Below, piece after piece: positions 7,186 through 64,000 of a DNA stretch of 64,000 bases (position 1 is its first letter; every line of letters begins with the position of its first letter). The notes below the pieces were generated by a model, which saw only the letters and a program-made list of their open reading frames with translations, did no database searches and was not told where the DNA came from. The position numbers and the translations under genes are program-made. Source of the DNA: a virus. The DNA is taken from positions 56,291 through 120,290 of IMG/VR virus record IMGVR_UViG_3300047585_000133; one strand, given 5' to 3'.

Positions 7186-7536
7186 TCATGACAGCGTCGT
7201 CGTGTTAGCGGAGAACAGCGCACTCAGCGCCGTGGCCGGGATCAGCGAGTACTCCGCGTCCGAAAGCACCGCGACGGCGCCGCCGGAGTAGCGGATCCCG
7301 TTGGGCAGCACCACGTTGGACAGGTCCGCCGTGATCGTCACCTGATGACTCACGTCCCCTCCCAGGGAGCCCGTGGAAGTGCCCCCGGCACCCGCCGTCA
7401 GAAGTGCCTTCGCCCCCGCCGTCAGCAGTCCGAACTGATCGTCCGGGAGCGTGAAACCGGCTCCCGCCGCATAGCGGATGCCGTTCGGCATGACAATCGA
7501 GTCGGTGCCGGAGTTGACGACGAGGGAGTAGGTCAT
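7186..7536 (-). CDS. Putative virion protein with two internal repeats
   Basis: IVMPNGIRYAAGAGFTLPDDQFGLL / VVLPNGIRYSGGAVAVLSDAEYSLI; TGATG coupling. Confidence 0.7.
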   Translation of the reverse strand: MTYSLVVNSGTDSIVMPNGIRYAAGAGFTLPDDQFGLLTAGAKALLTAGAGGTSTGSLGGDVSHQVTITADLSNVVLPNGIRYSGGAVAVLSDAEYSLIPATALSALFSANTTTLS

Positions 7537-10500: not shown

Positions 10501-11150
10501 GCCGAAGGGTCAGCCGGATCTTCCACCAGCAGGCTGTTCTCGAAGAACGACAGCCCGGCGCAGACCTCGTGGATCAGCTTCTCTTCCAGCTTGCCGGTCG
10601 TCTTGTTCCGCTGCCGGATCTTCTTGCCCTTCAGGGCCGGCAGGTGCTTGCAGTACTCGGCCGGGGAGGTGGCCTTGTTGCCGCAAGCGGAACAGGTGGA
10701 CCAGTCCACGTCCACGCCCATGGAGGTACGGTTGACCCGCCCGGCCAGGACCGCCTTCGCCAGCCTGGGGAACCTGACCGCGTCGACTTCGTGGAGGCCC
10801 TCGACCCAGGTGTCCGGACTGCCGTCGGGGTTCCTGTCGCGGTGCAGGGCGACGGCGACGATGACGCCCCGGGCCCGGCGGTGGTTCTCGTTGTTGTGGT
10901 TGACGAAGACCGGCTTGCCGAGGAAGGTCTTGTAGCCCTTCTCGATCTCGCCGGCCGGGAACGTGTCGTGGTTGTCGTTGGTCCGGCTGGAGATCATCCG
11001 GGACCGCAGGTACAGGTAGCCGGGACGCGGCTCGTAGTCGAATGTCACCCGGTGAGCGGCTTTGACGATCCTCCGGACACCGCTTCCGGGGTTGCCGGGA
11101 ACGGCCTGGCGCCAGGCTTCCAGCACCTCCAGCGACGCGTACTTCCGCAC
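7536..11150 (-). CDS. Capsid maturation protease / scaffold fusion with inserted Zn-binding modules (1204 aa)
   Basis: N-terminal KPVFVNH...TSMG...CSACGN...FFENSLLVEDPADP protease-like block; acidic scaffold-like C-terminus; upstream of decoration and MCP. Confidence 0.8.
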   Translation of the reverse strand: MRKYASLEVLEAWRQAVPGNPGSGVRRIVKAAHRVTFDYEPRPGYLYLRSRMISSRTNDNHDTFPAGEIEKGYKTFLGKPVFVNHNNENHRRARGVIVAVALHRDRNPDGSPDTWVEGLHEVDAVRFPRLAKAVLAGRVNRTSMGVDVDWSTCSACGNKATSPAEYCKHLPALKGKKIRQRNKTTGKLEEKLIHEVCAGLSFFENSLLVEDPADPSAFVLGTPDARGMAKAASARTASGEPDFRDYLGNTCRNCGDAVAWTPGNTRHPPRFKHDSARDYDHDPDPVNPQDKSGRMAPSQFGGTHCLFCGDPVRINLHSLSRPGNGWYHEDGMKREGHDPYPADPQKVYDSVPGARAEYDQARSRVEDHMHGLFEQLEGRPLPRSPRGDEHQMPPDPFTASKKTAGVTARPAHCVNCGTEFGSMYTDKKSGSWPHQSMPFLCNDCFYGHMGGAEHTVKGMPVRPMDKGGTQYHPVASDEMDYPEHYETGKIRPWEAGDALKRSQNARSKKPRGRQPKPVRGYGRDPKFDGLALKKDKNGFYVHTHRSRSDSYPTVDDIPDQEIEQIRATGSIGQEGSHCSGCGAQFSGKANPEGKSRSRFIPFLCRDCAPRHAQAPDMNGLAGLPRTRPADVIEGGGRFRQYHPDDHLRQSQNGLQVQAYGETRVPAQVDTLRMDECPVCGEHNVWSGSRCPVCGFVVPPSVFRDPDTSKAGEVRDQLGSAGDVTLPPDAPGAQQPDAQLPAAQVGSGQDADGQLVHPDQIAPDGVPTVQGGDPGETDGQPPDAQEDPLADPSADPGADPEAGEEEQNLEGEGDVPPEDPAGELEDQPGDDLICPACGTTFETDAAAQPGVPCPACGMASLHLIDEEDPGGEAAPPEGAEDPSGDGEEEPEAEQDEEEDKDMPASKTAAALAQAQARRIAELSVQNEVLHAQLSFLASAAGIAPELTEISRRVMRKHADILNPAQPVPDPPEGPPAETTEQALMPGSMDNAGRPGTTPGANAGVPAQMTTTPITPGVEMQTPPATNLVDVTAPVQGTNPSQDGGVPLEQRRIETDVRIDPDPLKAHGPGIGGQGDNGAAFPWILDARGEQGGQPGAQKAASLEADASRRTFASIRLAKMRVQAGLAQGDELAVAEKIEKDASTPTDWIEREISVLSQTPVVQQRQAARPVARTASRSVPSLASVGASASYAPAVMDDLDASDLFD

Positions 11151-13118: not shown

Positions 13119-13374
13119 TCGCCCTTCCCCCGTCCCATCGGTCACGGATCAGCCCGGCACTCATCCCACAGCTTCCAGGGTCAACCCAGGCGCCTATGCC
13201 ATCCCAGGCAACAGCAGGCACGATCATCCCCATGCGGGCTGCGAGTGCTTCGACGATCTCGCTGCTCTTCATGCCGGGCGCACCGAGGAACACTCCCCGC
13301 CCCTCGTACGGGTCGGCGGCGGCCATCTGCTCGCGGGTGACCGCTTCCATCCGGTAGCTGCCGAAGATGCTCAC
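13105..13374 (-). CDS. Hypothetical protein
   Basis: ORF track, GTGA overlap with upstream gene. Confidence 0.5.
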   Translation of the reverse strand: MSIFGSYRMEAVTREQMAAADPYEGRGVFLGAPGMKSSEIVEALAARMGMIVPAVAWDGIGAWVDPGSCGMSAGLIRDRWDGGRASERE

Positions 13375-16300
13375 GCGAACATCACGTCGTCGTCGTAGTT
13401 GTCAAGGTTGAGTCCCCTACGCTCAAGTTCACTGTCGGCATCCTCGTAATGCGTGCCCTCCAGGCGCAGCAGGTCCAGGTTCCGGGCCCGCTGCCCGCGT
13501 CCCTCCCGGATCAGGTCGTCGGCTTCCGCTTGCGGCAGCACGTCGGCCGTCTTGGCGAGGTACTCCCTCGCCGCCACCGCGATATCCCCGTCGCCCTGAC
13601 CGGGAGCAGAATCGCCGGTATAGGACCTGGACGCGGCTGACCGCTGGAAGGACGCCACGATATCTTCGATACCTCCCTGCGGCAGCCCGGCCGGGACGTC
13701 CACCTCGTCGGAGTCGGCGCCGCCGCCGGACCACTGCTGGTTCCCGGTCGTCTGAATTGACGGGTCCTCCGGAGACAGGTACTCGTCCTGGGCGCCCATG
13801 CCCGGCTCCTGGGTGACCGGAGAAGGCTGCTGGGCCTGCGGGGAGGTCTCGCGGTTCAGGTCGCCCATCGGGGTGCCTGCGCCCCGCTGGAAGCTGGCCC
13901 CGAACTCGCCGAGCGCAGCGGTATCCAGCGGGGCACCCTGGCCCTGGCCCGTCCCCGCGTCACCGCCGCCGATCGTCCCGTCAGCCGCTGCCGTCGCCTC
14001 GATGTCCTCGCCGGTCGTCTCCGGGAGTGCGGCCTCCGGGTGATCCTTCAGCTCGGCTCTGGATTCTTCCATCCGGATGCCGTTCGGGTCACGCGGGCTG
14101 ATCGCGGTCGACGGACCGGCGGTGTTCGCCCGGTCGGAGTATCCGAAGCTGTCCTGGTTCTCCTGCTGCCATCCCTCAGTAGAAGGCCAGTGCACGTCTC
14201 CCGGTACCGGCTGCTGCGCGGCGGTATTGCTCAGCGGCATCTGAAGGGCGCTGCCGTCCTGGATGCCGCCCCAGTTCTCCGGGTCGGGAGCGGCCAGGAA
14301 GCCGTAGGAGGCCGGGCTCTGGTCCTTGTTGGGCGGGGACGTCGCGCCGTAGGGCTTCTGCGTCGGGTGCTCGGAGACGTTCTGGCTGCCCCAGGAGCTG
14401 TTCGCCTGGTCGGCGGTGACGGCGAAGGACTCGACGGCGCGCAGCGGCACAGGATCGCCCGGCTCCTCGTGCCGGTGCGGGAGGCGGACCGCTGCGCCGT
14501 TGTCGTGCAGCGCCTGGTGGAATGCGTCAGCCGATTCCAGGCTCCCGGTCCGGCGCGCCACCGAATCCTCCGGCAGGCCGTGCGCCACCTGAAGGTGGCG
14601 CGCCATCAGGCCAGTGGAGCGCGCCAGGTCGGCGACGGAGCACATCCCGGCCAAGAGCCGGAGCGCGCCAATCTCGTCCGGGTCTTCTTTGGCGCGCACC
14701 AGCGCGGTAGTGGCACGGTGTGATGGCGCACCACGGGCGATTTCCCATTCGTCGCGCTCCTCCGGAGTCCAGTCCCAGTCGCGTGCCTCATCCGGGGTGG
14801 CGCGGTGCACCATGCTGCTCCGGCGCGCCAGCGGAGCGCGCCACTCCTCGCTCCACCGGCCCCGGTGCGGCGCGCCGTCGTACGGCGGCATCGACTTCAC
14901 CACGACCGAGGACGGCGACCAGGAAGCGGGCTCGGCATCGGAGTCGAAGGACCGGCCGAACATGCCGCGCGACTGAGCCTCGAACTGGAGAGCCATCACG
15001 TGGCTGCACGGGCGGCCGGCGTACCGGCTGCTCGCCGTCTTCTGGTGGAAAGATGCCCAGGGGCACCCGCAGGCCCAGTGAGATATCGTCTGCCGCTTGC
15101 CGACAGGCCGCTGGATGCCGGACTCGTAGGTGTCGTGGTCGCCCCGCACCTCGCCGATCACCATGCCCGCCGAGGCGTGGGTGATCCGGACGTAGCCTTC
15201 GGCCCGGATCCGCTTCGCCTTCGCCACCACGTCGCTCCAGGCGGCGGTGAACTCGAACCGGAAGTCCCGGTTTCCGGCGGCGGCGGTGAACATCGCGAGC
15301 GCCGCGTCCTTGCTGAACGGGGTGTCCTCGTCGCCCTTGCCGGTGTCGTTCGGGTCTGTTCCCGCAGACTGGTCGTTGTCGTCGTCCTGGTCCCCGCCGC
15401 CGCCGCTGTCCCCGTCGTCCGGGGCGAAGGGGGCAGCAGGCGGAGTACCGCGTTTCACTTTCCCGTCGTCGCGGCCCTGGGTCCAGGCGCGGTTCCGCTC
15501 GCTGACCTCTGCCCCGGCGGCGGGCCACTCGTCCGGGTCGGCGGGCGGCATGTCGTCCGGGTTCCCGGGGATCCCGGCCGGGGGGATATCCGCCGGATTG
15601 TCCTCTTCGCCGTCCCCGATGGCCTGCGGGGAGTCGTTACCGGGGCCTGCTTCGTCCTCGTCGCCGTCCTCGTCGCCGTCCAGGTCGTTGCCCGGGTCGT
15701 CGTGCTCGTGGGCGGGAGCCGGGCTGTCGTCTTCACTGCCATGATTATGGTCGTGCACGTGCACGTGCACGTTGAGCGCCGACATCATCCGGCGGAACCG
15801 CGCCGGGTCGGTCTGCTGGTACACGGCCGGGTCCGGGGCCGGCTTCACTCTCCTCAGCCGGTCCATGGCGCGGGCAGGGTCTTTCGACGAGCCGCCGTGC
15901 TCCGGGGCCACGATGGGATATCCCTCGGGGGTACGCATGCGCGGGGTACTGAAGATCGACGGGCCGAACATGTTGCTCAGCGATTCCTCGCGGTCCGGAC
16001 CCTGCTCGTCTTCCGGCTCGGTGTGGCTGTGGTTCGCCATCCCGGCGTCGTGCATGCCCTGGTGCAGGTCCTGGATCCGGTCCCCGTGCGCCCGGATCCG
16101 GTTGAACTGCGTCTCGCCCCAGCCGTGGCCGTCGCGCATGTGGTCTTCCCACTGGCTGTCGGCCGATGCCTCCACCGGGCCGATGCCCTCTCCCTGCGCC
16201 TCTTTCATCCGTTCTTCCACCTGGGACCTCGGCGGAGTATTGCGGCCGAGGAACTCCCCCGACGGCACGAAATCGCCCTCGGTGATACCGGGCGGGACCG

Positions 16301-17462
16301 TCTGCCAGCTGTGCAGGTGCTCGCGCTGCGGCCCGGTCCACGGCACCCGGGCTCCGGTGAACTGGTGGGAGCTGCTGGCGTCGTCTCCGAGGTCCCAGTG
16401 CGGGTCGAAGTCGTACTCGTCGGGATGGCCGTGGCCGACGTCGCCGTAGGCGTGCTGGGCGTCGTGGTCTTCCGACAGCATCCGCCGCTGGGCATCGCTC
16501 ATACCGGGAGTCTGGGGCGGGAAGCCGTGCTCTTCCTCCATGTGCCGGGGCAGGTTGTCCAGTGCTGCGGTGAAGGCGCCGATCTCCAGTCCGGGGCCGC
16601 CGCCGGCTGACATTCCCTCGGGGTACATGCCGACGGTGGCGGCGTTCTCGTTCTTCTTGTCGCCGTGCTGCGACTTCGGCAGCGCCTGGTTCCATCTGGG
16701 GTCGCCGTCACCCTCGGTGGAACGGTCATCGTAGGAGTCCGGGTCGCCGGCACGCGGGACAGTGCCGTGCTGCGGGGCGTCGCCGTGGCCGTCGATGTTC
16801 GTGCCGTTGATGTCGGTGGCATGACGGCGGGAGCCAAGGTACTGCCCGCTGGCATCGTCGCCGTGCTCCCACAGAGGGTCAAGTTCTCCCTCATGCTGGT
16901 GATCGGCGTCCCCGCTGTCGTGCAGCTGGTCGTGCGCGTGCGCCATGGTGAACTGCCAGGACGGATCACGGTGGTTGGCGCGGTCGAATATCTCTTTACC
17001 GTGGTCCTCCACCAGGTGGCGCTTCAGGGCCAGGTACTCAGCGCTCGACCCGGTTACGCTGATCGCCGTGGCATGGTGGCGCATGCCGACCAGTCCGGCA
17101 GCTTCCTCCATCTCGGCGAGCCGCGCCATCACCGGGCTTGTCATCCACGGCGGGGGCGGTGCCTCCTGCTGGGGTCCGAGGTGCTCTTCCGTCCAGTCCT
17201 GCTCGGCGGGCTCGGCCCAGTCCATGCCGGTGTCGCCTTCGCCGCCGTTGTACCCGCCGTTGCGGGGGTCTTCCTCGGTGCCGTAGGCGGCGGCGGTCTT
17301 CGACCCGATGACGGTGATCTGGCTGCCTGGATCGGGCCGGTCAGACAGGATGCTGCCCATCTCCGGGTAGTCATGAGCCGCTGTGCGGTGCTGCTGCTCC
17401 TGCTCGTCCTCAGGCTCGTCGTCGTTGAGCTGGGACAGCCTGGTGCTGTGCTTCCGGATCAT
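13371..17462 (-). CDS. ~1363-aa modular putative internal head protein with SWIM Zn finger and four His-rich modules
   Basis: WACGCPW...PCSH SWIM motif; repeated H-x4-HG...H-x3-H...HxH; many xTA motifs; RBS GGGAGG before ATG 17462. Confidence 0.7.
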   Translation of the reverse strand: MIRKHSTRLSQLNDDEPEDEQEQQHRTAAHDYPEMGSILSDRPDPGSQITVIGSKTAAAYGTEEDPRNGGYNGGEGDTGMDWAEPAEQDWTEEHLGPQQEAPPPPWMTSPVMARLAEMEEAAGLVGMRHHATAISVTGSSAEYLALKRHLVEDHGKEIFDRANHRDPSWQFTMAHAHDQLHDSGDADHQHEGELDPLWEHGDDASGQYLGSRRHATDINGTNIDGHGDAPQHGTVPRAGDPDSYDDRSTEGDGDPRWNQALPKSQHGDKKNENAATVGMYPEGMSAGGGPGLEIGAFTAALDNLPRHMEEEHGFPPQTPGMSDAQRRMLSEDHDAQHAYGDVGHGHPDEYDFDPHWDLGDDASSSHQFTGARVPWTGPQREHLHSWQTVPPGITEGDFVPSGEFLGRNTPPRSQVEERMKEAQGEGIGPVEASADSQWEDHMRDGHGWGETQFNRIRAHGDRIQDLHQGMHDAGMANHSHTEPEDEQGPDREESLSNMFGPSIFSTPRMRTPEGYPIVAPEHGGSSKDPARAMDRLRRVKPAPDPAVYQQTDPARFRRMMSALNVHVHVHDHNHGSEDDSPAPAHEHDDPGNDLDGDEDGDEDEAGPGNDSPQAIGDGEEDNPADIPPAGIPGNPDDMPPADPDEWPAAGAEVSERNRAWTQGRDDGKVKRGTPPAAPFAPDDGDSGGGGDQDDDNDQSAGTDPNDTGKGDEDTPFSKDAALAMFTAAAGNRDFRFEFTAAWSDVVAKAKRIRAEGYVRITHASAGMVIGEVRGDHDTYESGIQRPVGKRQTISHWACGCPWASFHQKTASSRYAGRPCSHVMALQFEAQSRGMFGRSFDSDAEPASWSPSSVVVKSMPPYDGAPHRGRWSEEWRAPLARRSSMVHRATPDEARDWDWTPEERDEWEIARGAPSHRATTALVRAKEDPDEIGALRLLAGMCSVADLARSTGLMARHLQVAHGLPEDSVARRTGSLESADAFHQALHDNGAAVRLPHRHEEPGDPVPLRAVESFAVTADQANSSWGSQNVSEHPTQKPYGATSPPNKDQSPASYGFLAAPDPENWGGIQDGSALQMPLSNTAAQQPVPGDVHWPSTEGWQQENQDSFGYSDRANTAGPSTAISPRDPNGIRMEESRAELKDHPEAALPETTGEDIEATAAADGTIGGGDAGTGQGQGAPLDTAALGEFGASFQRGAGTPMGDLNRETSPQAQQPSPVTQEPGMGAQDEYLSPEDPSIQTTGNQQWSGGGADSDEVDVPAGLPQGGIEDIVASFQRSAASRSYTGDSAPGQGDGDIAVAAREYLAKTADVLPQAEADDLIREGRGQRARNLDLLRLEGTHYEDADSELERRGLNLDNYDDDVMFA

Positions 17463-17502
17463 TGCCGCCTCCCTTACTTCTTCCCTGGAACGGCCGGAAG
17501 CG

Positions 17503-17531
17503 TTGAGGAATACAGCTTTTATTGATATTGT
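17503..17531 (+). promoter_or_regulatory. Motif promoter (copy 4), leaderless
   Basis: TTGAGG-AATACAGCTTTTATTGA-TATTGT-6-ATG(17538). Confidence 0.75.
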
Positions 17532-17537
17532 CCTGTC

Positions 17538-17777
17538 ATGACGCCGATTAACGAGGCCCAGATCCGCGAAGACCACTACGACGAGGACATCCTGGAGATC
17601 TACGAGAACGCCGGGGTGCTGGCGTCCGACCAGGACCAGGTCACCTTCATCACCGACAGCGAAGGCAAGCGCGTCTTCGCGATCGTCCCCGTCGAGTTCG
17701 CCGAGCACGCACTAGACCGGGAGGACGTGGCGACCTTCGCGGCCCGCGCCGGGCTCCTGAGCCGCAGGCTCAGGTGA
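17538..17777 (+). CDS. Phd/YefM-like small protein
   Basis: VTFITDSEGKRVFAIVPVEFAE resembles the Phd ITxxGxxxAxLVxxE pattern. Confidence 0.5.
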   Translation: MTPINEAQIREDHYDEDILEIYENAGVLASDQDQVTFITDSEGKRVFAIVPVEFAEHALDREDVATFAARAGLLSRRLR

Positions 17778-25352: not shown

Positions 25353-27626
25353 TCAGCCCCCGGCCGGGGTGTACTTCTCGTAGTCGGCCAGGTGACCGTC
25401 TTCCTCGGTCACTCCCAGCCGGGCGCGCATCCCCACGTGCGGCGGATCCTGGTAGGCGCGGATCGACGGCCCGGACATCCATCCGCCCTTGCCGTCCTTC
25501 GCTTCCACTTCGGAGTCCGGCAGGTGGGCTTCGAGGACGAAGCCTTCGCCGCCGGACGACGCGGCTACTCCTTCCAGGGGCGCTTCGTCCACTGCGCGGG
25601 CGAGGGCGGCCATCTTCCTGACCCGGTCGGCCCGGCGGAACAGCGCGCCCTGCTTCGGCATGCCGCGCTTGCCTGCTTTCGGCATGGACCCGCGCTGCTC
25701 GTCGGACTCCGGCGGGCGCTGCGGGTCAGCGTCTTGCTCAGCCGTCTCGCCTTCCGGCGGGGCGTTGAGCGGGCCGCCCGTCTGGGCGTCCATCTCGTCG
25801 GCCATCTGCTGGTCCTCGGGGGTGGGCGCGAGGTCGGGCAGCGGGAGGGGGGAAGCGCCCATCCGGTCGATCATCATGGCCTGGCCCGCTACGGCCGGGG
25901 GCACGCCTTCCACCTGGGCGACCGGAGCGAAGTCGGCCATGAGGTCGGCGGGGACCGGCAGTCCCTGGTTGCGGAGTTCGACGAACGCCTGGCGGCGGGT
26001 ACGGGCCTGGGCGATGATGTCGGCTACCGCCTCGTCCTGGGACCGTTCGCGTTCCTCGTCCAGCTCGATGCCGAGGCCCCGGGTCCGGGTGCGGGCGGAG
26101 ATCGGGATGCCGCTGGCGCGAAGGGCCTCGGTGAACTGGCGGGTGGTGTCCTCGTCCCGGAAGTTCAGCACCTGGCAGGTCAGGTCGGGCACCAGGAGTT
26201 TCGGCTGCTCGGTGATGCGCTTCTCGCCGGTCTCCTCGTCGGTTTCGAGGACTTCCTCCATGATCACGAAGCGGCGGCCGTTGCGTTCCTCGTAGTCGTA
26301 GTGCTCCTGTGCTTCGGCGACGATGAGCATCCGCTGCCTGATGTGCCGCTTCAGCATCTTCTGGTAGCTGGTCATCAGCTGCTCGACCAGCTGCTTGTTG
26401 AGGGCGTCGGCGGCGTAGGTCTGGCCTTCTCCGGCTCCGGTGAGGAATGTGCGCGAAAGTCCGAAAACTTGCAGGACGCGGTCTTCGATGCGTTCGAAGT
26501 CCATGCTCAGGTCGGGCATGTTCTCCCGGCCGAAGACGGACTCCAGCTCGACGGCGAAGTTGTGGATCAGCACCCGGAAGTCCCCGGCGAGGGCGGCGTC
26601 CATGGCCATCTCGAAGTTTTCGAGGTCGTCGTCGGTGGGGATCCACGGGACCGACGTGCCGAGGTCGGTGGCGCTGGCACCGAGTTTGGCCAGCAGCAGC
26701 GGGGTGTAGAGCCGGTCGGCGATCGAGTCCAGGGCGGTGTTGAGCATCTCCTGCTGGAGCATCGAGCGCATCGCCCGGGTCAGCAGCGGCAGCCCTCTCA
26801 GGTTGAAGGTGTCGCCCTTGAACTTGAGCTGCCGCAGCAGGATGTTGCTGACCGGCATGAAAGCGTTCTCGGCCGTGTAGGCGGCCAGCTCCGGGTACTC
26901 CTGGACGAGCTTGTTATATTCCCAGGCGGGCTGGCGGGTGGTGAGGATCTGCCGGATCGTCCACGGCAGCCGGGTGAAGTACCGGGGTTCCTTCAGGAAC
27001 GGGCTGCGCTCGACCTTGATGTCGTCGGAGTTGAGCAGCTCCTCGTCGTCCCAGATTCCCAGGTCCTCGTTGAAGGTGGCGAACGGCCACGCCTCGCCCG
27101 TGATGTAGTACTCGCGGCCGATGTCGACGAGGAATTCCGAGTAGTCCAGGCCGTCGTCGCCGAAGAACAGGTCCTCGTAGAACTCCGTCAGCCGCTGGTC
27201 TTTGCATTCGAGCTTGGCGCCGACAACAGGGAACTTGGAGAAGATGTCGATGCAGGAGCCGACGATCGGGTCCGTCTGGTAAAGGAGTCGGCAAAAGGCT
27301 CTGACCTTAGCCAGTTCCTCGTTCTGGCTGAAGTCGTAGGGAAGGTTGTTCTGGCGCCAGTAGAAGAGCGGGTCTCTGGGCCTGCCTGTAGCAAACTGGA
27401 TGTCGCTGAACCCCGACCCGCCGGCTCCGCCCGTCGAGTAGCCCGTACGGCGGCCGACCGAGGCGGTACGTGCGTTGGCCCGGCGGTTCTTACGGGCCTC
27501 CAGCACTTCGGGGGACATCTGCTCGGCGGAGGCCGCCCCGATGCCCATGGTGCGGCCGAGCTGACGGGCGACCGAAGCCTGCCGTGCAGCACCCGACCCC
27601 GGCTGGTACGCGACCCTCATCCGCAA
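25353..27626 (-). CDS. Portal protein (cluster C-like)
   Basis: RLLYQTDPIVGSCIDIFSKFP, GEAWPF, RGLPLLTRAMR, DSIADRLYTPLLLAKLG; head-module position. Confidence 0.85.
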   Translation of the reverse strand: MRMRVAYQPGSGAARQASVARQLGRTMGIGAASAEQMSPEVLEARKNRRANARTASVGRRTGYSTGGAGGSGFSDIQFATGRPRDPLFYWRQNNLPYDFSQNEELAKVRAFCRLLYQTDPIVGSCIDIFSKFPVVGAKLECKDQRLTEFYEDLFFGDDGLDYSEFLVDIGREYYITGEAWPFATFNEDLGIWDDEELLNSDDIKVERSPFLKEPRYFTRLPWTIRQILTTRQPAWEYNKLVQEYPELAAYTAENAFMPVSNILLRQLKFKGDTFNLRGLPLLTRAMRSMLQQEMLNTALDSIADRLYTPLLLAKLGASATDLGTSVPWIPTDDDLENFEMAMDAALAGDFRVLIHNFAVELESVFGRENMPDLSMDFERIEDRVLQVFGLSRTFLTGAGEGQTYAADALNKQLVEQLMTSYQKMLKRHIRQRMLIVAEAQEHYDYEERNGRRFVIMEEVLETDEETGEKRITEQPKLLVPDLTCQVLNFRDEDTTRQFTEALRASGIPISARTRTRGLGIELDEERERSQDEAVADIIAQARTRRQAFVELRNQGLPVPADLMADFAPVAQVEGVPPAVAGQAMMIDRMGASPLPLPDLAPTPEDQQMADEMDAQTGGPLNAPPEGETAEQDADPQRPPESDEQRGSMPKAGKRGMPKQGALFRRADRVRKMAALARAVDEAPLEGVAASSGGEGFVLEAHLPDSEVEAKDGKGGWMSGPSIRAYQDPPHVGMRARLGVTEEDGHLADYEKYTPAGG

Positions 27627-54082: not shown

Positions 54083-55114
54083 CTACAGGGCGGCCAGCTC
54101 CGCGACGTCGGCGATATCCCCGAGGCCGCCTGCCGCACCGGAAGCTCCCCCGCCGCCTTCGCCGCCGCCCAGGCCGGGCATGATCATCGACCGGATCCCC
54201 TGGCCTTCCAGGACGTGCGCGGCGGCGCCGCCCCCTCCGCCGCCGGACCCCGATCCCCCGCCGCCTCCGCCGCCCATCGGGCCGTTGCCGATCGCCGAGT
54301 CGTTGAGGTCGGCCGCCCGCAGGTAACGGGACACCACCTTGCGGCCCAGCCGCTCGCACTCGGCCGCCGGCAGCCCCGGGTTCGCCTCCGCGATCATCGC
54401 GGTCACCCGCAGGATCTTCGAGCGTACGGGGTCGAGGCTGCCCGTGGTGACCCCGGGGCGGCCGGTCGCCTGTCCTACCGGAGCCGTGTTGCCGCCCGGC
54501 TGGGGCCCGGCGGAGACGCTCGGGGACATGCTGTTGGAGTCCGGAGTCGGCAGCCCCACGTCCACCGAGCCGTTGCCCAGTCCGGCGTCCGGCGGGGTGT
54601 ACGGGCTCATCATCGACGCACCGGGATCGTCAGAGGCCTGCCGGCGCAGCGACCCGGTAGCCTGGCTGACCGGGGCTGCCGCCTCCTGCCTGGGCTGGGT
54701 GACCGCCGGGTCAGGCCCGGACAGGTTTCCCATCGGGACCTCCGAGTAGCCGTGACTGAAATCCGGGCCCTCGTCGTGCTCCAGGGGCTCTTCGGGGCCC
54801 TGGCCGTAGCCGCCGCCGTTCAGCAGCGGCTCCAGCGAGATAAGCGGGTCTTCCCCCTCGGCCAGGGCCTCGCGGTACAGCTCGTAGCGGCGCCGGGCGG
54901 TCGCCTCGATGTCGTCCGCCTCTACCCCGGCGCGGGCCGCGATCAGCATGACGGAAGAGTTTGCCGTCGCCAGCCGGTGCCCGAACTCCTCCGGACTCCG
55001 CGAGGCGAGCAGGAACGGCATCAGGCTATCCATCTCGGCTTCGGCACGGGCGAGTGCCGCTTCCCTCGCGAAGTGCTCGTGGTCGCCGGAGGCGGCCTCC
55101 CACAGGTCGTCCAC
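54083..55114 (-). CDS. Gly/Pro-rich putative internal head protein
   Basis: GTG at 55114 coupled to previous TAG; FLLASRSPEEFGHRLA helical N-terminus. Confidence 0.65.
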   Translation of the reverse strand: MDDLWEAASGDHEHFAREAALARAEAEMDSLMPFLLASRSPEEFGHRLATANSSVMLIAARAGVEADDIEATARRRYELYREALAEGEDPLISLEPLLNGGGYGQGPEEPLEHDEGPDFSHGYSEVPMGNLSGPDPAVTQPRQEAAAPVSQATGSLRRQASDDPGASMMSPYTPPDAGLGNGSVDVGLPTPDSNSMSPSVSAGPQPGGNTAPVGQATGRPGVTTGSLDPVRSKILRVTAMIAEANPGLPAAECERLGRKVVSRYLRAADLNDSAIGNGPMGGGGGGGSGSGGGGGGAAAHVLEGQGIRSMIMPGLGGGEGGGGASGAAGGLGDIADVAELAAL

Positions 55115-56739
55115 TACTGCGCTCCCATCTTCGCCAGATTGGCCTGCACCGTATGCCGGAAAGCCGCCAGGCGGTCGTTGCCGCGCGGGTCTCCCCGGTA
55201 GGCGTCCTTGTTGCTGTACTCGCCGTGGTCGGCTTTGTTCTCGGCTGCGGGTGCCAGTATGGCATTCTCCGGGTGCATCCCCGAGTAGGTCTGCACCGTC
55301 GGGCCGTCCGGCTGCGGCTGCTGCTGCGGCCGGCCCATCACGTCGTCGGGGACAACAGGACCGCCGGGCAGCGGCGGGGCACCCTGGTAAGGGGAAGCGC
55401 CTCCCGCCTGAGCCGGGTCCGACAGGCCGCCCATCGGCGGCGGGGCGCCGGGACCGTTGAGCGGGGTCGCGCCCATCGGGTCCGGCGAGGTACCCGGTCC
55501 GTCGGTAATCAGGTCCGTGGAAGTTCCGGCCTGGCGGACCAGGTACATGGACGTGCCGTGACCGTACCCGCCCGTCTGCTTGCGGGTAAACGACTGGTGC
55601 AGTCCGATCCGGCGGATCAGGCCCCTGTGCCTGCCGCCCTGAACGGCATGGGCATGCGTCCACGCTTCCTGGATCTCCGGCCGGTCGGTGATCCCCGCGT
55701 ACAGCCCGGCCTCGAACTTCGCCGAACCCTGGGCGACCAGCCGCTGGCCCGGCCGCCACTTCAAGGCAAAGAGGTACGCCCGCCTGAACTCCGGGTCCCT
55801 CATCAGCGAGTCAGGGGCGAACGCAGCCGATACCCGCCTCAGCGACGCGGTGTGCTTCGACGCGCGGGCCACCTGGAAGGACCGCTGCGCCTCCTGGGCG
55901 TTCTGCGCCTGGCCCGAGTCCCCGCCCATCGAGCGGGGCACGTCCTGCGGACCCTGCGGGGACCGGGCCTGGCCGTACCCCTGGGCGTAGCCCTTCACGT
56001 ACGGGCTGACCCCGGAGGAGTTGTCGGCGAACAGGGGCCGCTCCCCCGCCGACCTGTCCGACTGGCCGGCGCTCATGCCCGCCTGGTAGTCGCCGCCCTC
56101 GTTCTGCGACCAGGGATCCGGGGACGTCTCCGGGGTATTGTACGGCGGGTTAGTGTCGTCGGTGGTCTGGTGCGGCGGCGTCCAGGTGTCGGCTTCGCGG
56201 CGCATCGCAGTGGCCTGGCCGCCGCTGTCACCGTGGTACAGGACGCTGGAGTCCGCGTTCATTTTCCGTCCCTGGGCGTAGGCCGCCAGGTACTGCGGGT
56301 GCAGGTCGCCGCGCCCGGTCTGCCGGTCGTACTCCTGCTGCGTCATCGCCGCGCGGCCGACCGCACCGTGCATCAGCCCGGCCGTCTCGTTCCAGGCCTG
56401 GAGGTAGCGGCCGTGCTGGATGGGGTTGTACGGGAACTTGTCCTGGTGCTGCGGGCTGTCGCCCCGGGCCGCCGCCGCCTGGCCGAGGGCCTCGGCATCG
56501 CCCGGGGGAAGCTGGGCCCTGGCTCCGGTGCGCGGCTGCGGGCCGTCCGGCCCGGTCGACCACTGCTGGCCGAACGTGGAGCCGGGCGCGTTGTCCCCGA
56601 GCGGGAACGCCACGCCGTCGGGCAGCTCGTCGTCCTCGGGGACGGCTTTGTTGTTCGGGTCGGTCACCTGCTGGATCTGCGGCAGGCCGCTGGCTCCCTG
56701 AAAGAGGAAGTGGCCCTGGGGGAGGATCCCGGTTGTCAC
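55114..56739 (-). CDS. Low-complexity putative internal head protein
   Basis: Begins with QGASGLPQIQQVTDPNN, also present in the upstream gene; xxA motifs. Confidence 0.65.
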   Translation of the reverse strand: MTTGILPQGHFLFQGASGLPQIQQVTDPNNKAVPEDDELPDGVAFPLGDNAPGSTFGQQWSTGPDGPQPRTGARAQLPPGDAEALGQAAAARGDSPQHQDKFPYNPIQHGRYLQAWNETAGLMHGAVGRAAMTQQEYDRQTGRGDLHPQYLAAYAQGRKMNADSSVLYHGDSGGQATAMRREADTWTPPHQTTDDTNPPYNTPETSPDPWSQNEGGDYQAGMSAGQSDRSAGERPLFADNSSGVSPYVKGYAQGYGQARSPQGPQDVPRSMGGDSGQAQNAQEAQRSFQVARASKHTASLRRVSAAFAPDSLMRDPEFRRAYLFALKWRPGQRLVAQGSAKFEAGLYAGITDRPEIQEAWTHAHAVQGGRHRGLIRRIGLHQSFTRKQTGGYGHGTSMYLVRQAGTSTDLITDGPGTSPDPMGATPLNGPGAPPPMGGLSDPAQAGGASPYQGAPPLPGGPVVPDDVMGRPQQQPQPDGPTVQTYSGMHPENAILAPAAENKADHGEYSNKDAYRGDPRGNDRLAAFRHTVQANLAKMGAQ

Positions 56740-56746
56740 GGCTCGC

Positions 56747-58264
56747 CTACTTCCCGACGGGGGCGACGTGGTATTCCTTCGCCATCTGGTCGATGTAGTT
56801 GACCACCTTGGCATGCGGCTCGTTCGTGCGGCCGATGTCGTGCTTGGCGTTCTCCACGTCGGCCGGGCCGCTCACCGGGAACTTGTCGTCAGTGCCGGGC
56901 AGGTGGTGGCTGGCGTTCTCCCGCTCGGATTCGGTGACGCCTCCGGCCGCCAGGCCTCTCGCGGCGGTCCGGCCGCGCCCGTTAGGGTGCTTGGCGCAGC
57001 CGCAGCCGCTGTCGGTGCAGTGCGCGCAGTCGCCGCCCTTGCACGCGGTGCACGACAGGTCGGCCAGGACGGGCCGCACGACGGCCATGAAGCCGTGCAG
57101 GACGGCAGTGTCGTCGAGGGTACGGTCACTGCGCCCCCAGGCGGCCGTGAAGCGGTTGTGGGCCTTCCCCAGCTCCGCCAGGGACGACGAGCCGGTCACC
57201 GCCCGCAGGCCCTCCCTGACGCCCACTGCCTCGCAGGCGGCAGCCCGGCGGGCACTCTCGATGTTCATCAGGTACCCGACGGCCACCGAGGCGGTATGAC
57301 TGCGGTCGCCGCAGGACTCTTCCGGCCAGTGGCTGCTGCCGCACCGTTCGTGGAACGGGTGCATAACCTCGGACTGCATCGCCCAGCGGTAGCCGAACGG
57401 GTCCGGTACCGAGTACCCGGCGACGGCGGCGGCGTGCCGCCGGTCGGCTCCGGCGTCCTGCGGCACCCCGGCGACCGGGTTGGGGGCGCTGGATCCCGTG
57501 GAATCGGTTGCGGCCGGAGCCGTGGGAATCGTGCCGGGCGGTCCCAGCGGAATTTCGGCGTAGGAGTCGGCGGTGTCGAACTGCGTGGTGTGCGAGTCGG
57601 GCCGTTCCGGTCCGCTGCCGAACCCGGATCCGCTGTTCTCCTGCTGCATCACCTGCTGGATCAGCGGTGCCTGGGCAGAGGAGGCCTGGGAGTCGCGGTC
57701 GAATCCCTCCACCTGGTTGAACGGGTCCTGGTCGGCGCCGAAAGTCGGGAAGACCTCGGTGGGGTACGGGGTGGCCGACGGGGCATTGTTCGGGTCCACC
57801 GTCTGGTCGATCTGCGGCAGCCCTGAGGCCCCCTGGCGCGAGTGCAGGTAGGCCACCACGCTCATGAACTCGTTGCGCGCCGCGCCCATTTTCAGCCCGT
57901 AGCCGGAGGCGAGGCTGCGCGCCCGGCCGTCGGCCTGGGCGGCTAGCTCGTCAGTGTCGGAACGGACGGCCGGGTCGAGGCCCCGGTACCAGAGCGAGGC
58001 CTCGGCGATCATCGCGGTGCGGTAGTCACCGGAGGGGATATCGGCATCGCCCAGCCAGTCGGTGGCGGCGGTGTGGTGCTCGTGGACCGGCACGGGGGTC
58101 AGCCGCTGGGCGGCGATTCTCGCTCCGAGGTCGGTCTCGCGGTCAAGGCCGGCTGCCGTCGTGCGGCTGCGGTCGTACTCGTCGAGGGCCGCGACTGCCT
58201 GCGCGAGTTCGGTGCCGTTGGACGCCTCGCGGATCATGCGCCGCAGGTCATTCCGGTCTGTCAT
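56747..58264 (-). CDS. Putative internal head protein with C-terminal DUF6582-like module
   Basis: HHTAATDWL, GASGLPQIDQTVDPNN; KFPVSGPADVENAKHDIG; RBS GGGAGGG. Confidence 0.7.
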   Translation of the reverse strand: MTDRNDLRRMIREASNGTELAQAVAALDEYDRSRTTAAGLDRETDLGARIAAQRLTPVPVHEHHTAATDWLGDADIPSGDYRTAMIAEASLWYRGLDPAVRSDTDELAAQADGRARSLASGYGLKMGAARNEFMSVVAYLHSRQGASGLPQIDQTVDPNNAPSATPYPTEVFPTFGADQDPFNQVEGFDRDSQASSAQAPLIQQVMQQENSGSGFGSGPERPDSHTTQFDTADSYAEIPLGPPGTIPTAPAATDSTGSSAPNPVAGVPQDAGADRRHAAAVAGYSVPDPFGYRWAMQSEVMHPFHERCGSSHWPEESCGDRSHTASVAVGYLMNIESARRAAACEAVGVREGLRAVTGSSSLAELGKAHNRFTAAWGRSDRTLDDTAVLHGFMAVVRPVLADLSCTACKGGDCAHCTDSGCGCAKHPNGRGRTAARGLAAGGVTESERENASHHLPGTDDKFPVSGPADVENAKHDIGRTNEPHAKVVNYIDQMAKEYHVAPVGK

Positions 58265-58339
58265 CAGCCCTCCCTGGGTTCCTGTCCCTTCTGCGGCCAG
58301 GTCACGGAAAGGATTCAAGGAACTGTAACGGGAGGGTAA

Positions 58340-59888: not shown

Positions 59889-59893
59889 GTCCC

Positions 59894-60658: not shown

Positions 60659-60926
60659 TGCTGGCTCCTGAGAATCGACTCAACGATGTCACGGACTGCT
60701 GCCTGGCCCGGTCCCTGCCGGTAGTAGCGGCTCACTTCTTCGCGGATCACCTGCACCATGACGTCTTGCACCTGGCGGGTAACCAGCGCCTGAACGTTCT
60801 CTGCCGTGCATACCCGGTCCACGGCTTCAGCGATCTCAGAGGAAAGATCCGTCATGTACTCGGTAAGTGCCGTCTTGATACTGGCCCTCATGCCCTCGAC
60901 TTCGAGGGTGATCACGGGGATGCCGA

Positions 60927-61247
60927 TCACTTCTGCGGTCCCTCGACGGCCTTCCGGACTTCGTCCTTCCAGCGGACCGGGAACTGCCCCGTCCACTGGA
61001 GCATGGAGTGCAGGAACCGCTTGGCAGCCTCGTCCCACTTGCCCTCATCGCCCTCGACGACCAGGCGGCCGTTCACCTCGCGCATCACCAGGAGCGGCTG
61101 GCCGTCGGCTCCCTCGATGGTGATGTTGAACGGCGGGCGCCCGGCGTTCAGGATGCTGCCTCCCTGCGGAGCAGGGAGACGGGAGACGCGCGGCCTCAGC
61201 CGCATCTTCATCTGGTCCTCGGGCACGGGCGGGACGGGAGCAACCAT
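60927..61247 (-). CDS. Hypothetical protein
   Basis: ATG coupled to upstream TGA. Confidence 0.5.
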   Translation of the reverse strand: MVAPVPPVPEDQMKMRLRPRVSRLPAPQGGSILNAGRPPFNITIEGADGQPLLVMREVNGRLVVEGDEGKWDEAAKRFLHSMLQWTGQFPVRWKDEVRKAVEGPQK

Positions 61248-61499
61248 CAGACGGTCCCCTCGATCTTGGTGAAGTCGGCGAACGGGTCCTCGGTCCGGGC
61301 CATCGCCTGCCAGTTCGGGTGGTCGGTTTCCCACTGGGCCCGGCGCCGGATCGCCTCGGGGAGGGTCTTCGGGCAGCAGGGACCGGGATGCAGTTCAGCC
61401 AGCGCGCACCAGTGGTCAATGAGACCGTCCGGGGTCTGGTGAATCCGGCACGTCCGCTGCGGGTGCTCCGCGAACTTCACCTCGGGGAGAGGCTCCTCG

Positions 61500-61811
61500 T
61501 CAGCCACCGAACGCCGCAATCCAGTGGCTCTGGACCGTGCGCCCGCCTTCCCGCGCACCGAGGCCCTCCCACGAGGGCAGCGTCTCGCCGTGCACCGACT
61601 GACCGTCCGCATGAGCCCGGTAGCGCTCGTACCCGTACCGGGCCTGGGCTTCGACGTGCTCCGGATTCTCCGCCAGGAGACGTCCGAGCTGCCCCCAGAA
61701 CGAGGCGGCATGGCTCTCGTGCTCGGTCACCTCGTTGGTGACCGGGCCGTAGGTGGTGCGCACCTTGATATTCTGCGGCTCGCGCTCGTCACGCATGGCT
61801 GTCAGGGTCAT
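61500..61811 (-). CDS. Hypothetical protein
   Basis: AGGAGG RBS; GETLPSWEGL...HWIAA. Confidence 0.6.
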   Translation of the reverse strand: MTLTAMRDEREPQNIKVRTTYGPVTNEVTEHESHAASFWGQLGRLLAENPEHVEAQARYGYERYRAHADGQSVHGETLPSWEGLGAREGGRTVQSHWIAAFGG

Positions 61812-64000
61812 TCTGGTCCTCCTGGTCTGATCTTCTTGACGAAATACTCTTAGGCTCCCTGGGCTTCCTGCTGGTGTAAGTCATGTCCGTCATGCCGAGC
61901 TGCATTGCATTCCACACCCGGTGATGACCGTCCATCAGCGTGCGCTCACCTTTGTGCGTCTTGATCCACAAAGGCGTGCGCTGCCCGTTTTCCGCCATAT
62001 CGTCTTGAAGATCATAGACTTTTGACCTCCCGGCGTCTTCGTCCCAGTGGGTAGCCCGCCTCAGGTTACCGTCTCTCCGCTGGAGCACGTCAGCAACCGT
62101 CCCTCCGCCCGGCGAGTCAGCGGACCTCAGCTTAAGGATCTCCTCGATCGGCATTACCGGGCCGCTATTCTTAGCCGCCGTGTGCAGGCTGATTCCAAAC
62201 GGGAAGCTCCGCACGTCGTCCCCGCGCTTCACGTGCAGGTGCGTGAAGCTCACCGGCACCTTCGGGTGCTGCTCCGGAACCGCTTCGCCCTCCTCCAGGT
62301 ACGCCAGGGTGACGTGCGGCGTGTAGTTCTTGAACTCGCTCGCGTTCAGGTCCTCCACTGCGTGCCGGACGGCTGACAGGCCCCGGACGAACGCAGGCAC
62401 GTACGCCACCGTCTTGTTATCGCTGCCCTCGCTCGGCGGGAACGTCCGCGTCCCCTCCAGGTGGCCGCTCAGCGGCGGCGACTGGGAGGCGGCCTCCTTC
62501 GCCCGGCGGCAGGCCTCGGCGAACGTTTCGTCATCCACGTCCTTGCCGAGGTAGCAAATTGTCACATGATGGTCGTCGACCCCGCCGGGTACCGGCCGCA
62601 CGGCACCCGGCGGGAGTTCCAGGTAGATCATCCCCGAACGCGGCGACAGGTCGTAGCCCTTGGCGGCCGTCCTCGCAGAATGCACCGGAGCACCAGGCGA
62701 CATCCCGCATTCACCGCAGGCGTAGTTGCCTGTGTCAGCGAACTGGTGCGGCCTCTTCTGCTTCTCGTACAGACTCTGGTTCTGCTCGCGAACCTGGCGC
62801 TGCCGTTCGTCCTGCGCTTCGTGGATCTCCTGCCGGGGCAGCTCCCGGCCCACCAGCATCGGCCCCCTGGTACGGAACGCACTCGGCAGCTTGTCCACCG
62901 GATCAGGTTCCATGTCCCCTGCGGGGTGTACCTCGAAAACACGGCCAGGACCCCGCCCGGGACGGGCGTGTTCCTGGCCGGCGGCGAGCTGCCAGGCGCG
63001 CAGCTTGTCGGTCGAGGCGTAGGAGTGATCGGGACTCGAAGCATCCCATTCGCCCCTGGTGCCGCGCGAAGACGGCGAGGTGACGTATTCGCCCGGGGCA
63101 AACGGATGCTGAGTCCCGTGGTACCAGGGGCCGTCTTCGGCTGCCGCCTCGCGTCCGGTCAGGCCGTCGTAGCCGCTGACGGCATGCCGACGGCTGTACT
63201 GGTTTTCGCGCTGCTGCTCGATCTCTTCCTGCGACATGTGCCAGGAGTTCAAGTCCTGCGGCCACTCATGCCGGGGCACCTCCCGGACCACGTGCAGCGG
63301 GTGGCTGGTCATCCACGACGCATTGCCCCGGACGATTCCGTTAGCGGTCTCGTCAGGCTTCACCGGGCCCGTCGGGTGCACCTGGTACAGGTGGCCCTCA
63401 GATCCTCCGCGCAGCTCGGCCATATGCCCGGCCAGGCTCGGGTCGGTGGTGGCGTAGAGCGGGGAGTTCTCCCTGAAGTCGTCGCGGTCCGGGTACTTCT
63501 TCCAGTAGTGGTGCTCGATCTGGTCGCCAGGCTCGTACTGGTCAGCGGTGCCGTGGTAATAAGCAGGACCGGCCGCCGCCTCGCGGTGGGTGCCGTCGTC
63601 AGCCGCCGCCGTGCGCCACGGGGACTTCTCGCGGGCCTTCAGCTGCTCGTTTTCCTCATCCCTGAACCAGGGCTTGCGTGCTTCTGCCGCCGCGTCGTAA
63701 TCAGCCTGATTGTCGTAGTCACCGACCGGCAGGTGCAGGCCGAGGTCCCAGGCAGCTGCCGCCCGGTGGTGCCCGTCCATCATCTGCGGCCTCTTCAGGG
63801 GACGGCCGCCCCGGGTGAACCGGGCCAGCGCCGGAGCCTCCACGCCGTGCTCAGCGACGTGGGCGCGCAGCTTCTCCCAGTACTCCGGCCCGTTCTTCTT
63901 AAAGTGCTTCACCAGGGAGGGGAGAGTCTTCACCGGGTAGTCGGGGTACTCGTACTTCCCGTACTCCTCCGGCGGCACCATCCTGATGGTGGTACCCGAG
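61789..64000 (-). CDS. Multi-enzyme polyprotein, 5'-truncated: ParB-like, Arr-like ART x2, Zn knuckle, 2H phosphoesterase, ParB-like
   Basis: MDGHHR twice; YHGT...YA[TS]TD...[YF]xVxPxG twice; HVTICY and HVTLAY; frame stays open to the window end. Confidence 0.85.
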   Translation of the reverse strand, partial: SGTTIRMVPPEEYGKYEYPDYPVKTLPSLVKHFKKNGPEYWEKLRAHVAEHGVEAPALARFTRGGRPLKRPQMMDGHHRAAAAWDLGLHLPVGDYDNQADYDAAAEARKPWFRDEENEQLKAREKSPWRTAAADDGTHREAAAGPAYYHGTADQYEPGDQIEHHYWKKYPDRDDFRENSPLYATTDPSLAGHMAELRGGSEGHLYQVHPTGPVKPDETANGIVRGNASWMTSHPLHVVREVPRHEWPQDLNSWHMSQEEIEQQRENQYSRRHAVSGYDGLTGREAAAEDGPWYHGTQHPFAPGEYVTSPSSRGTRGEWDASSPDHSYASTDKLRAWQLAAGQEHARPGRGPGRVFEVHPAGDMEPDPVDKLPSAFRTRGPMLVGRELPRQEIHEAQDERQRQVREQNQSLYEKQKRPHQFADTGNYACGECGMSPGAPVHSARTAAKGYDLSPRSGMIYLELPPGAVRPVPGGVDDHHVTICYLGKDVDDETFAEACRRAKEAASQSPPLSGHLEGTRTFPPSEGSDNKTVAYVPAFVRGLSAVRHAVEDLNASEFKNYTPHVTLAYLEEGEAVPEQHPKVPVSFTHLHVKRGDDVRSFPFGISLHTAAKNSGPVMPIEEILKLRSADSPGGGTVADVLQRRDGNLRRATHWDEDAGRSKVYDLQDDMAENGQRTPLWIKTHKGERTLMDGHHRVWNAMQLGMTDMTYTSRKPREPKSISSRRSDQEDQNDPDSHA

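Follow-up and report, generated by a model that had tools for sequence, protein, structure and literature searches.

Recurring Ala-containing linkers between the enzyme modules of a polyvalent phage protein, and their possible recognition by the head-maturation protease

Introduction

How does a phage use a protein that carries several unrelated small enzymes on one polypeptide, joined by a short peptide that keeps returning at their borders? The question is raised by the gene at one end of a linear viral contig of 120,290 bases, estimated to be 76% complete, in the IMG/VR database (IMGVR_UViG_3300047585_000133). The window is the whole stretch analyzed, 64,000 nucleotides at 56291-120290 of the contig, and both end at 120290. 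Its source is an uncultured high-GC myophage of roughly 160 kb, distant kin of the Bxz1-like phages, with a portal 38-40% identical to Bxz1/Myrna-type mycobacteriophage portals. This phage is called G000 below, related viral genomes are G001, G002, G003, and G005, and the visible part of the protein is P0001, on which the residue numbers of modules and linkers are counted.

Polyvalent proteins, as presented in the main text of Iyer et al. 2017 (PMC5512222), are single polypeptides, encoded by phages or conjugative elements, with 2 to 15 domains of disparate activity, and are predicted to be embedded in the virion, injected early, and possibly cut up, a view taken up in the main text of PMC9503650. 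Judged by its domains P0001 is a member of this published class, with ParB-like, ADP-ribosyltransferase (ART), and 2H domains that all belong to the set described there, and the general idea offered by the initial annotation of this DNA, a virion-embedded and possibly processed multi-effector protein, is one already published in 2017. The new element relative to that main text, in which the word "linker" has 0 occurrences, is a short motif that the module borders share with the probable sites in the head protease itself. On whether a packaged precursor is in fact cut at these linkers by the head protease, we are evenly divided.

Results

The polyvalent gene and its modules

The gene and its predicted modules are as follows.

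61789..64000, minus strand: polyvalent-protein gene, 3′ part (736 codons plus stop), 5′ part lost at the contig end
63649..63981, minus strand: ParB/Srx-like module 1 (residues 1-111, MDGHHR core), matching ESM-Atlas ParB_N clusters
63274..63561, minus strand: Arr-like ADP-ribosyltransferase module 1 (residues 141-236), by Pfam Arr-ms and alignment to ARR-2 9iba
62830..63138, minus strand: Arr-like ADP-ribosyltransferase module 2 (residues 282-384), by alignment to Arr-ms 2hw2
62680..62748, minus strand: H-x9-CxxC-x8-H knuckle (residues 412-434), tail of the Arr2 unit, by motif and by P0143
62188..62649, minus strand: 2H phosphoesterase module (residues 445-598), two HVT motifs, LigT/CPDase-like by Pfam and Foldseek
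61843..62166, minus strand: ParB/Srx-like module 2 (residues 606-713, MDGHHR core), then a 17-aa acidic/basic tail, by ESM-Atlas and PHROG

The minus-strand frame 61789..63999 has no stop codon up to the last base of the window and gives 736 amino acids (aa), open at the 5′ end, or 730 aa from the ATG at 63981. A shadow frame or misassembly at the contig end has a negligible chance of accounting for this open reading frame (ORF): it does touch the contig end, and high-GC DNA does yield long spurious frames such as a 513-aa one on the plus strand, but this explanation is refuted by three Pfam families above cut-off and by 651 homologs at E ≤ 1 × 10−3, and is opposed by a G+C content at third codon positions (GC3) of 0.82 and by synteny with G002. 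The 513-aa plus-strand ORF opposite the polyvalent frame failed the filter on GC3 and its second-position counterpart (GC3/GC2).

What the initial annotation took for one ORF is a real frame and not a whole gene. P0001 is the 3′ part of a far longer gene, because the contig ends there, homology extends upstream of the ATG (SGTTIRM here versus PATTVRM near residue 535 of P0003), and the corresponding frames in relatives, complete ones included, have 1825-2805 aa. In the representative search residues 1-111 matched only stretches inside longer proteins, and 28 blastp matches begin at residue 1. P0001 is about the C-terminal third of a polyvalent effector protein, and the lost upstream part likely exceeds 1000 codons. 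In relatives the Arr and 2H modules are repeated and the content is hypervariable at the place matching the contig break (63982-64000), which may be the reason that the assembly stopped there.

Five enzyme-type modules lie within 730 aa, and portal, capsid, and protease genes on the same contig provide the phage context. The order of domains read in the initial annotation (ParB-like, two of Arr type, knuckle, 2H, ParB-like) is borne out by Pfam, structure alignments, ESM-Atlas, and motif. Pfam Arr-ms (PF12120) scores 51.2 bits against a cut-off of 25 in two stretches, the best being 141-236. Both Arr modules retain, in the alignments to 9iba and 2hw2, the residues at Arr-ms H19, Y49, and D84, which we take to be catalytic; in module 1 against 9iba these are the YHGT, Y, and D positions. 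The two modules are 32% identical to each other, and the structure closest to module 2 by Foldseek is Arr-ms 2hw2 (E = 2.7 × 10−6, identity about 26%). From their family membership they would be expected to transfer ADP-ribose to some acceptor. The Zn knuckle that ends the Arr2 unit falls in a region of the AlphaFold2 model with a predicted local distance difference test (pLDDT) score <50, and a Pfam search at E ≤ 10 with the knuckle alone gave nothing useful; a standalone protein of 160 aa (P0143) is made of Arr plus knuckle and ends at the knuckle.

The 2H module matches Pfam 2_5_RNA_ligase2 (PF13563; 36.0 bits, cut-off 27, residues 472-575) and LigT_PEase (PF02834; 30.3 bits, cut-off 23.3), and its translation has the HxT motif twice, both times as HVT. 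It had been likened to T4 Acb1, with which it shares a 2H fold, two HxT/S motifs, and phage origin. That likeness did not hold: the module reaches 18.6 bits against the Pfam Acb1 (PF23474) gathering score of 27 (E = 0.0017), and Foldseek places it nearer to the Deinococcus radiodurans CPDase 5h7e (E = 4.6 × 10−7) and Escherichia coli LigT 5ldo (E = 4.5 × 10−6) than to Acb1 7t27 (E = 1.2 × 10−3), with the rotavirus VP3 2′,5′-phosphodiesterase also among the nearest structures. On the predicted model, the module is LigT/CPDase-like, structurally closer to those enzymes than to Acb1, and could act on RNA ends or signalling nucleotides by opening 2′,3′-cyclic or 2′-5′ phosphodiester bonds in them.

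The two ParB-like ends had no match to PF02195 in Pfam at E ≤ 10. ESM-Atlas aligns module 1 with ParB_N clusters at template modeling (TM) scores of 0.58-0.60 and module 2 at 0.52, where PHROG ParB-like matches are weak. Each has a DGHHR box, they are 38% identical over 45 aa, and their ESM-Atlas feature score is 0.92. After the main text of PMC5512222, they are probably NTP-dependent nicking or binding domains. For the modules together an anti-defence role is plausible from the families they resemble.

The AlphaFold2 model of P0001 was built on a patchy alignment and is informative for residues about 281-600. Its block-mean pLDDT is 76-97 over residues 281-400 and 94-98 in the 2H module, so the confident parts are Arr2 (about 281-410) and 2H (about 445-598); elsewhere it is poor.

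The linker motif

The borders between modules carry the following linkers, given with the number of blastp breakpoints at each.

63574..63615, minus strand: linker 1, RTAA (123-126) and REAA (133-136); 29 and 25 breakpoints within 15 aa, in overlapping windows
63142..63189, minus strand: linker 2, RHAV-SGYDGLTG-REAA (265-280); 24 breakpoints
62662..62673, minus strand: linker 3, RTAA (437-440); 117 breakpoints within 15 aa
62173..62184, minus strand: linker 4, HTAA (600-603); 96 breakpoints, the confident 2H fold ending at about residue 598

All the linkers listed in the initial annotation, RTAA/REAA, RHAV/REAA, RTAA, and HTAA, are present at the borders where it had them (RTAA 123, REAA 133, RHAV about 264, REAA 277, RTAA 437, HTAA 600). 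Written strictly as [RKH][TE]A[AVS], the motif occurs 6 times in P0001 where 0.29 copies are expected, a number reached in 0/300 shuffles, and 5 of the 6 copies are between modules. The positions where blastp matches to other proteins begin or end give the same borders: of 335 internal breakpoints on P0001, 268 have one of the five linker motifs no more than 15 aa away, compared with 21.6% of random sites. None of 5000 random placements matched this proximity, and no breakpoint is found at KEAA 495, the copy that is inside a domain. In the AlphaFold2 model, at most about 10 residues separate the ends of the confident Arr2 and 2H domains from linker motifs, linker 3 being about 5-10 residues N-terminal of the confidently folded 2H domain. 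Standalone genes elsewhere also start and end at the linker positions, as 2H does in P0128, P0153, and P0162 and Arr plus knuckle does in P0143. The SGYDGLT leader is found in front of the 2H modules of P0002-P0011 as well, and the RHAV-SGYDGLTG ahead of Arr2 looks, from this resemblance, like a 2H-module leader left behind as a recombination scar.

The enrichment is not peculiar to P0001. Over 161 related proteins the strict motif is observed 313 times where 70.5 are expected, and when recurring 4-mers of the long relatives are counted without bias, REAA, KTAA, EAAA, TAAR, and HTAS come out on top. Per 1000 aa, taken over four genomes, there are 4.44 copies in the polyvalent proteins, 5.57 in the family of a 523-aa protein encoded downstream of P0001, 2.22 in the protease fusions, and 2.08 in the gp100-like proteins; the remaining ORFs together have 0.54. 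In G000, the other ORFs of >700 aa outside the head region (n = 4) have 0 copies. The literature searched, in its main texts, has no description of the motif or of the specificity of a Bxz1-like protease. Codon identity is uninformative on the idea that the linkers are DNA recombination sequences, because the codon bias is extreme.

The head protease fusion

If the linkers are cut, the candidate enzyme is encoded at the other end of the window, and it carries the motif itself.

7536..11150, minus strand: head-maturation protease, Zn-ribbon modules, and scaffold-like C-terminal domain, 1204 aa; PHROG head maturation protease, E = 3 × 10−22
10437-10448 (RTAS), 8427-8438 (KTAA), and 7629-7640 (RTAS), minus strand: motif sites 1 to 3 of the fusion, conserved in G002 and G003

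The initial annotation had named this protease domain, and structure agrees with it. VIA-align of the AlphaFold2 model (pLDDT 69) finds T4 gp21 5jbl_A at Z = 9.8 with a root-mean-square deviation of 3.1 over 125 aligned aa, followed by the varicella-zoster virus protease at Z = 6.9 and the human cytomegalovirus protease at Z = 5.4, with unrelated rows beginning at 5.7. By Foldseek alone the match is weak (E = 8.7 × 10−3, not reaching E ≤ 0.001), a PDB sequence search with the domain gave 0 matches, and Pfam at E ≤ 10 on the domain alone nothing useful. H85 and S143, the candidate catalytic His and Ser, are invariant in 27 sequences, and their spacing is, we presume, gp21-like. By modeling, the N-terminal domain has the T4 gp21/herpesvirus assemblin fold.

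Site 1 comes directly after the protease domain and reads GMAKAASARTAS, AAARTAV, and AAAKTAAA in G000, G002, and G003; site 2, in the same three genomes, follows an acidic stretch and precedes the scaffold-like C-terminal domain (DMPAS-KTAAALAQ); and site 3 is 34-37 aa from the C-terminus, 34 in G000, as RTA[AS]RSVPSLASVGA...DLFD. Among 120 homologs of the fusion the strict motif is observed 320 times against 71.2 expected, and 34 of them have it 34-37 aa from the end. The pattern [RK]-x-[AG]-[AST] stands just ahead of the conserved tail in 79 of the 86 homologs having that tail, and the relaxed motif is within 30 aa of the protease-end anchor in 82 of the 114 having the anchor. The homologs run from 724 to 2078 aa with variable modules that include Zn ribbons, DUF7178 (PF23802), Arr-ms, and GNAT; a DUF7178-like block is in the G001-G003 fusions and is missing in G000. 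Some of the homologs come from Streptomyces assemblies, a hint at the host.

Other head proteins

25353..27626, minus strand: portal, PHROG portal E = 6.8 × 10−144; RTAS at 27459-27470
13371..17708, minus strand: gp100-like protein, 1445 aa, adjoining the protease gene; acidic N-terminal leader ending HRTAA
5227-6252: major head (capsid) protein, by PHROG

The portal RTAS directly precedes a Gly-rich stretch that leads into the conserved core. Most of the 56 relatives listed have R-[TQSA]-A-[SA] or R-T-A-x at this site while the adjoining sequence varies. The gp100-like protein has 4 copies of the strict motif where 0.67 are expected; its leader with H-[RQ]-[H]-T-A-[AS] is kept in G002 and G003, and the gene is syntenic with Pio gp100. 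Mycobacterium phage Pio (L107), a cultured Bxz1-like phage, has the same gene pair, with gp100 of 1278 aa and gp101 of 1371 aa, the latter a protease fusion annotated as hypothetical. RTAA-type motifs in Pio gp100 and gp101 number 4 against 0.49 expected and 3 against 0.70, including ASRTAAAVRTAAD.

The capsid protein has a leader of about 26 aa (6170-6252) that ends PRVAS before the conserved core, RVAS being residues 23-26, and G001 has RRATA there. RVAS may be a relaxed protease site; it is too loose to count as one.

Modules of the types found in P0001 are also fused to head proteins in other phages, Arr-ms inside protease fusions (P0230, P0237, P0244) and 2H inside portal, portal plus MuF, and Mu-portal fusions (P0014, P0016-P0019). 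The main text of PMC5512222 likewise describes 2H domains fused to MuF and portal and proposes that they degrade defence nucleotides, and such fusions are taken as a sign of head packaging in the main texts of PMC5512222 and PMC9503650. Next to the inserted 2H of P0014 and P0016-P0019, on one side or on both, a V/L-A-K-A peptide recurs, such as VAKAATGYE in front and VAKAGD, VAKADA, or VAKADR behind. These flanks may, going by their position, be another lineage's version of site-flanked cargo.

Relatives and module shuffling

The initial annotation pointed to Bxz1-like phages for homologs of the polyvalent protein. None came to light there: neither megablast with the region nor tblastn with P0001 gave a match to GenBank phages, Bxz1-like ones included, at E ≤ 1 × 10−5. 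Because of this the relatives compared are uncultured viral genomes, of which a viral-contig scan found 59 related loci, complete genomes of 160-166 kb among them.

G002 and G003 are close, with portals 88% and 86% identical to that of G000, and their polyvalent frames share part of the P0001 modules, 2H at 60-63% and ParB plus Arr at 50%. The module sets in relatives otherwise include one to three Arr, one or two 2H, and GNAT, with NUDIX in G001 and G005. In the same frames the strict motif is observed 16 times against 1.22 expected in G003, 8 against 0.70 in G002, and 6 against 0.89 in G001, and G005 has 7 copies. Module content thus varies among close relatives while the linkers persist, and the check that the initial annotation had proposed on this point comes out positive in G001-G003 and G005. 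There are two or three giant polyvalent genes in a row per related genome, and synteny with the downstream 523-aa gene is kept.

Discussion

The account that we find most economical for the distribution of the motif, on the sequences compared, is that it would be the site of the head protease. Each module is an autonomous small enzyme with a short leader ending in [RKH]-[TE]-A-[AS], and the phage's gp21/assemblin-fold head-maturation protease would recognize the leader's end, most likely cutting after the first Ala as at the herpesvirus A↓S sites. The polyvalent precursor would be built into the prohead, where the protease would cut it into free enzymes while releasing itself from the scaffold and trimming the portal and gp100-like leaders. 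Leaving the head together with the DNA, the freed enzymes would have host nucleotides, nucleic acids, or proteins as their targets during the first minutes after infection begins. Modules would be exchanged through recombination at the linkers, giving close relatives different cargo sets. Put more broadly, this would be a capsid polyprotein system, in which a leader plus an R/K/H-x-A↓A/S code suffices to load any small enzyme, an assemblin-fold protease with herpesvirus-type R and M sites and Ala cutting frees it, and the linkers double as recombination joints through which a modular counter-defence set (ART, 2H, NUDIX, GNAT, ParB-like, and others) is reshuffled, and with it the injected enzymes, between near-identical phages. 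We hold this broader picture only tentatively, with doubt somewhat the stronger side.

Several observations weigh against processing by the head protease. The sixth copy of the motif in P0001, KEAA 495, is a conserved helix run inside the 2H fold and no linker, so the 4-mer arises for structural reasons too, and 67 strict copies are spread over the other ORFs of the four genomes. The strict motif is absent from the G002 and G003 portals and from the G001 protease fusion, and has 0 copies in all capsid proteins examined; the protease site must therefore be looser, R/K-x-A-A/S, a form that is common by chance in an Ala-rich proteome. The polyvalent gene is about 34 kb from the portal and outside the head module. 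With the N-terminus of P0001 cut off, no targeting leader is visible in this copy, and the N-terminal half of its AlphaFold2 model is of low confidence. T4 gp21, the best structural match, cuts after Glu, so Ala cutting, which the initial annotation had linked to the fold, does not follow from it; what argues for such cutting is the position of the motif together with the herpesvirus analogy.

A packaged polyvalent protein might also be cut, in cis or in trans, by a metallopeptidase (MPTase) module of its own, or stay uncut, with the motif as that peptidase's site or as a flexible joint. We judge this unlikely, if far from fanciful. Autoprocessing by a zincin-like MPTase is what the main text of Iyer et al. 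2017 (PMC5512222) proposes, in place of the head-protease processing proposed here, and the same text notes that N4 vRNAP is packaged uncut. An HE[AG][AS]H module, part of the polyvalent set, is conserved in P0003, P0004, P0006, P0010, P0012, P0013, and the G002 and G003 polyvalent frames, a further point against the head protease. This HExxH module is seen in relatives only and not in the 736 visible aa of P0001, the G005 frame lacks it in a motif scan, and the G001 frame has HHAAH only. Three proteins that are not polyvalent, the portal, the gp100-like protein (in its leader), and the protease-scaffold fusion, moreover have the motif at conserved positions, and the layout resembling R and M sites points to the head protease. 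It is a more improbable possibility that the protein is a cytoplasmic multi-enzyme that is never packaged, and that the motif is a joint or helix cap spread by cassette recombination and a compositional habit of head proteins. The gene's place outside the head module and the copies in other ORFs, along with the one within a folded domain, would suit this, as would an Ala-rich, high-GC proteome that makes xxAA common. It has to contend with the 8-fold difference in motif rate between polyvalent proteins and other ORFs, conservation of the motif by position within otherwise diverging segments, tail-sized and other large proteins that have 0 strict copies, and the fusion of the same module types to protease, portal, and MuF.

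Processing by the head protease has precedents to be compared with. In the main text of PMC10052503, the one prohead protease of SPN3US, gp245, cuts at AXE, at 14 sites in 9 proteins that include the portal, the capsid protein, ejection proteins, and gp245 itself; T4 Alt is packaged and injected (PMC5512222, main text). The protease here shares the fold of T4 gp21, which acts on the internal proteins and Alt, and, as in the T4 gp21 and phiKZ/SPN3US gp245 systems, N-terminal leaders end in the motif. The differences are that the T4 and SPN3US motifs are Glu-based and the motif here Ala-based, and that there mainly one propeptide is removed per protein, whereas here a single chain has the motif 6-16 times, between its enzyme modules, so that one precursor would yield several enzymes.

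Herpesvirus R and M sites are of the form x-x-A↓S/T, with YLQA-T and VQA-S in pseudorabies virus (PrV), and the M-site cut removes a capsid-binding C-terminal tail, of 37 aa in PrV (PMC4498786, main text). The positions of the motif in the protease fusion resemble this R/M-site layout of the assemblin-scaffold protein UL26. Unlike UL26, about 650 aa of Zn-ribbon and variable modules stand here between the protease and the scaffold-like domain, P3 is basic, and sequence similarity is undetectable.

Among polyvalent proteins, the main ART clade named in the main text of PMC5512222 is Tox-ART-HYD2, whereas the P0001 ARTs are Arr-type by Pfam. A last relative of the arrangement is the MuF-anchored polymorphic toxins of temperate phages, which Jamet and colleagues are said to have described in 2017. 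They have in common with the present proteins a variable enzymatic cargo on a head protein and cassette-like exchange, and differ in having a single C-terminal toxin where the polyvalent proteins here have many modules. Pfam MuF (PF04233) was found at E ≤ 0.001 in none of the full-length polyvalent frames of G001, G002, G003, and G005.

If the linkers are head-protease sites, they would make a phage counterpart of viral polyprotein processing, serving injected cargo and not replication proteins. They would also give a sequence rule that predicts packaged proteins and cut positions in these phages and, for putting foreign enzymes into phage heads, a design rule taken from nature. The parallel between herpesviruses and phages would then reach beyond the fold to the layout of the sites, and perhaps to the specificity for Ala. 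Since Pio gp100 and gp101 carry the motif, phages already available suffice to test the cleavage part. The locus is in any case a hot spot of enzyme novelty, with hundreds of relatives and many modules without a family, and the standalone modules with their candidate substrates (cyclic nucleotides, NAD-dependent modification) bear on phage counter-defence.

Neighbouring genes and further observations

55114..58318, minus strand: two motif-rich proteins (523 and 566 aa) downstream of the polyvalent gene, with 4 and 1 strict-motif copies

The two ORFs overlap by 68 bases. Pfam and PHROG assign no family to the neighbouring genes at 55114-61811, these two included. G001 has the 523-aa family as a single 1283-aa frame, a separate 566-aa homolog was not found there, and HHTAATDWL of the 523/566-aa region is kept in it. 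The two proteins may be further cargo or ejection proteins.

A second inter-module peptide, LLxHF[EG]A, occurs 6 times in the G001 polyvalent frame (L002:4292-10489) and nowhere else in G001. It is present about 4 times in P0061 and also in upstream polyvalent genes of L102-L106, and it follows the protease domain in P0249. The downstream polyvalent genes (L103:7874-, L102, L104, L106; P0005-P0007, P0013) have a conserved short N-terminal leader with PKS[LV][TS]; next come an R-x-A-A-like site and an Arr module, in that order. In G005 the same peptide recurs internally. By its position this leader is a candidate capsid-targeting leader.

The portal frames of distant relatives (L061-L072) include several of 920-1130 aa, in which extra sequence is inserted immediately behind the conserved ...IRAFC/YC motif. 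This insertion resembles an intein (C-N-T-P-D-A-P..., VVG blocks coming later), and the annotation of the Pio portal mentions an intein.

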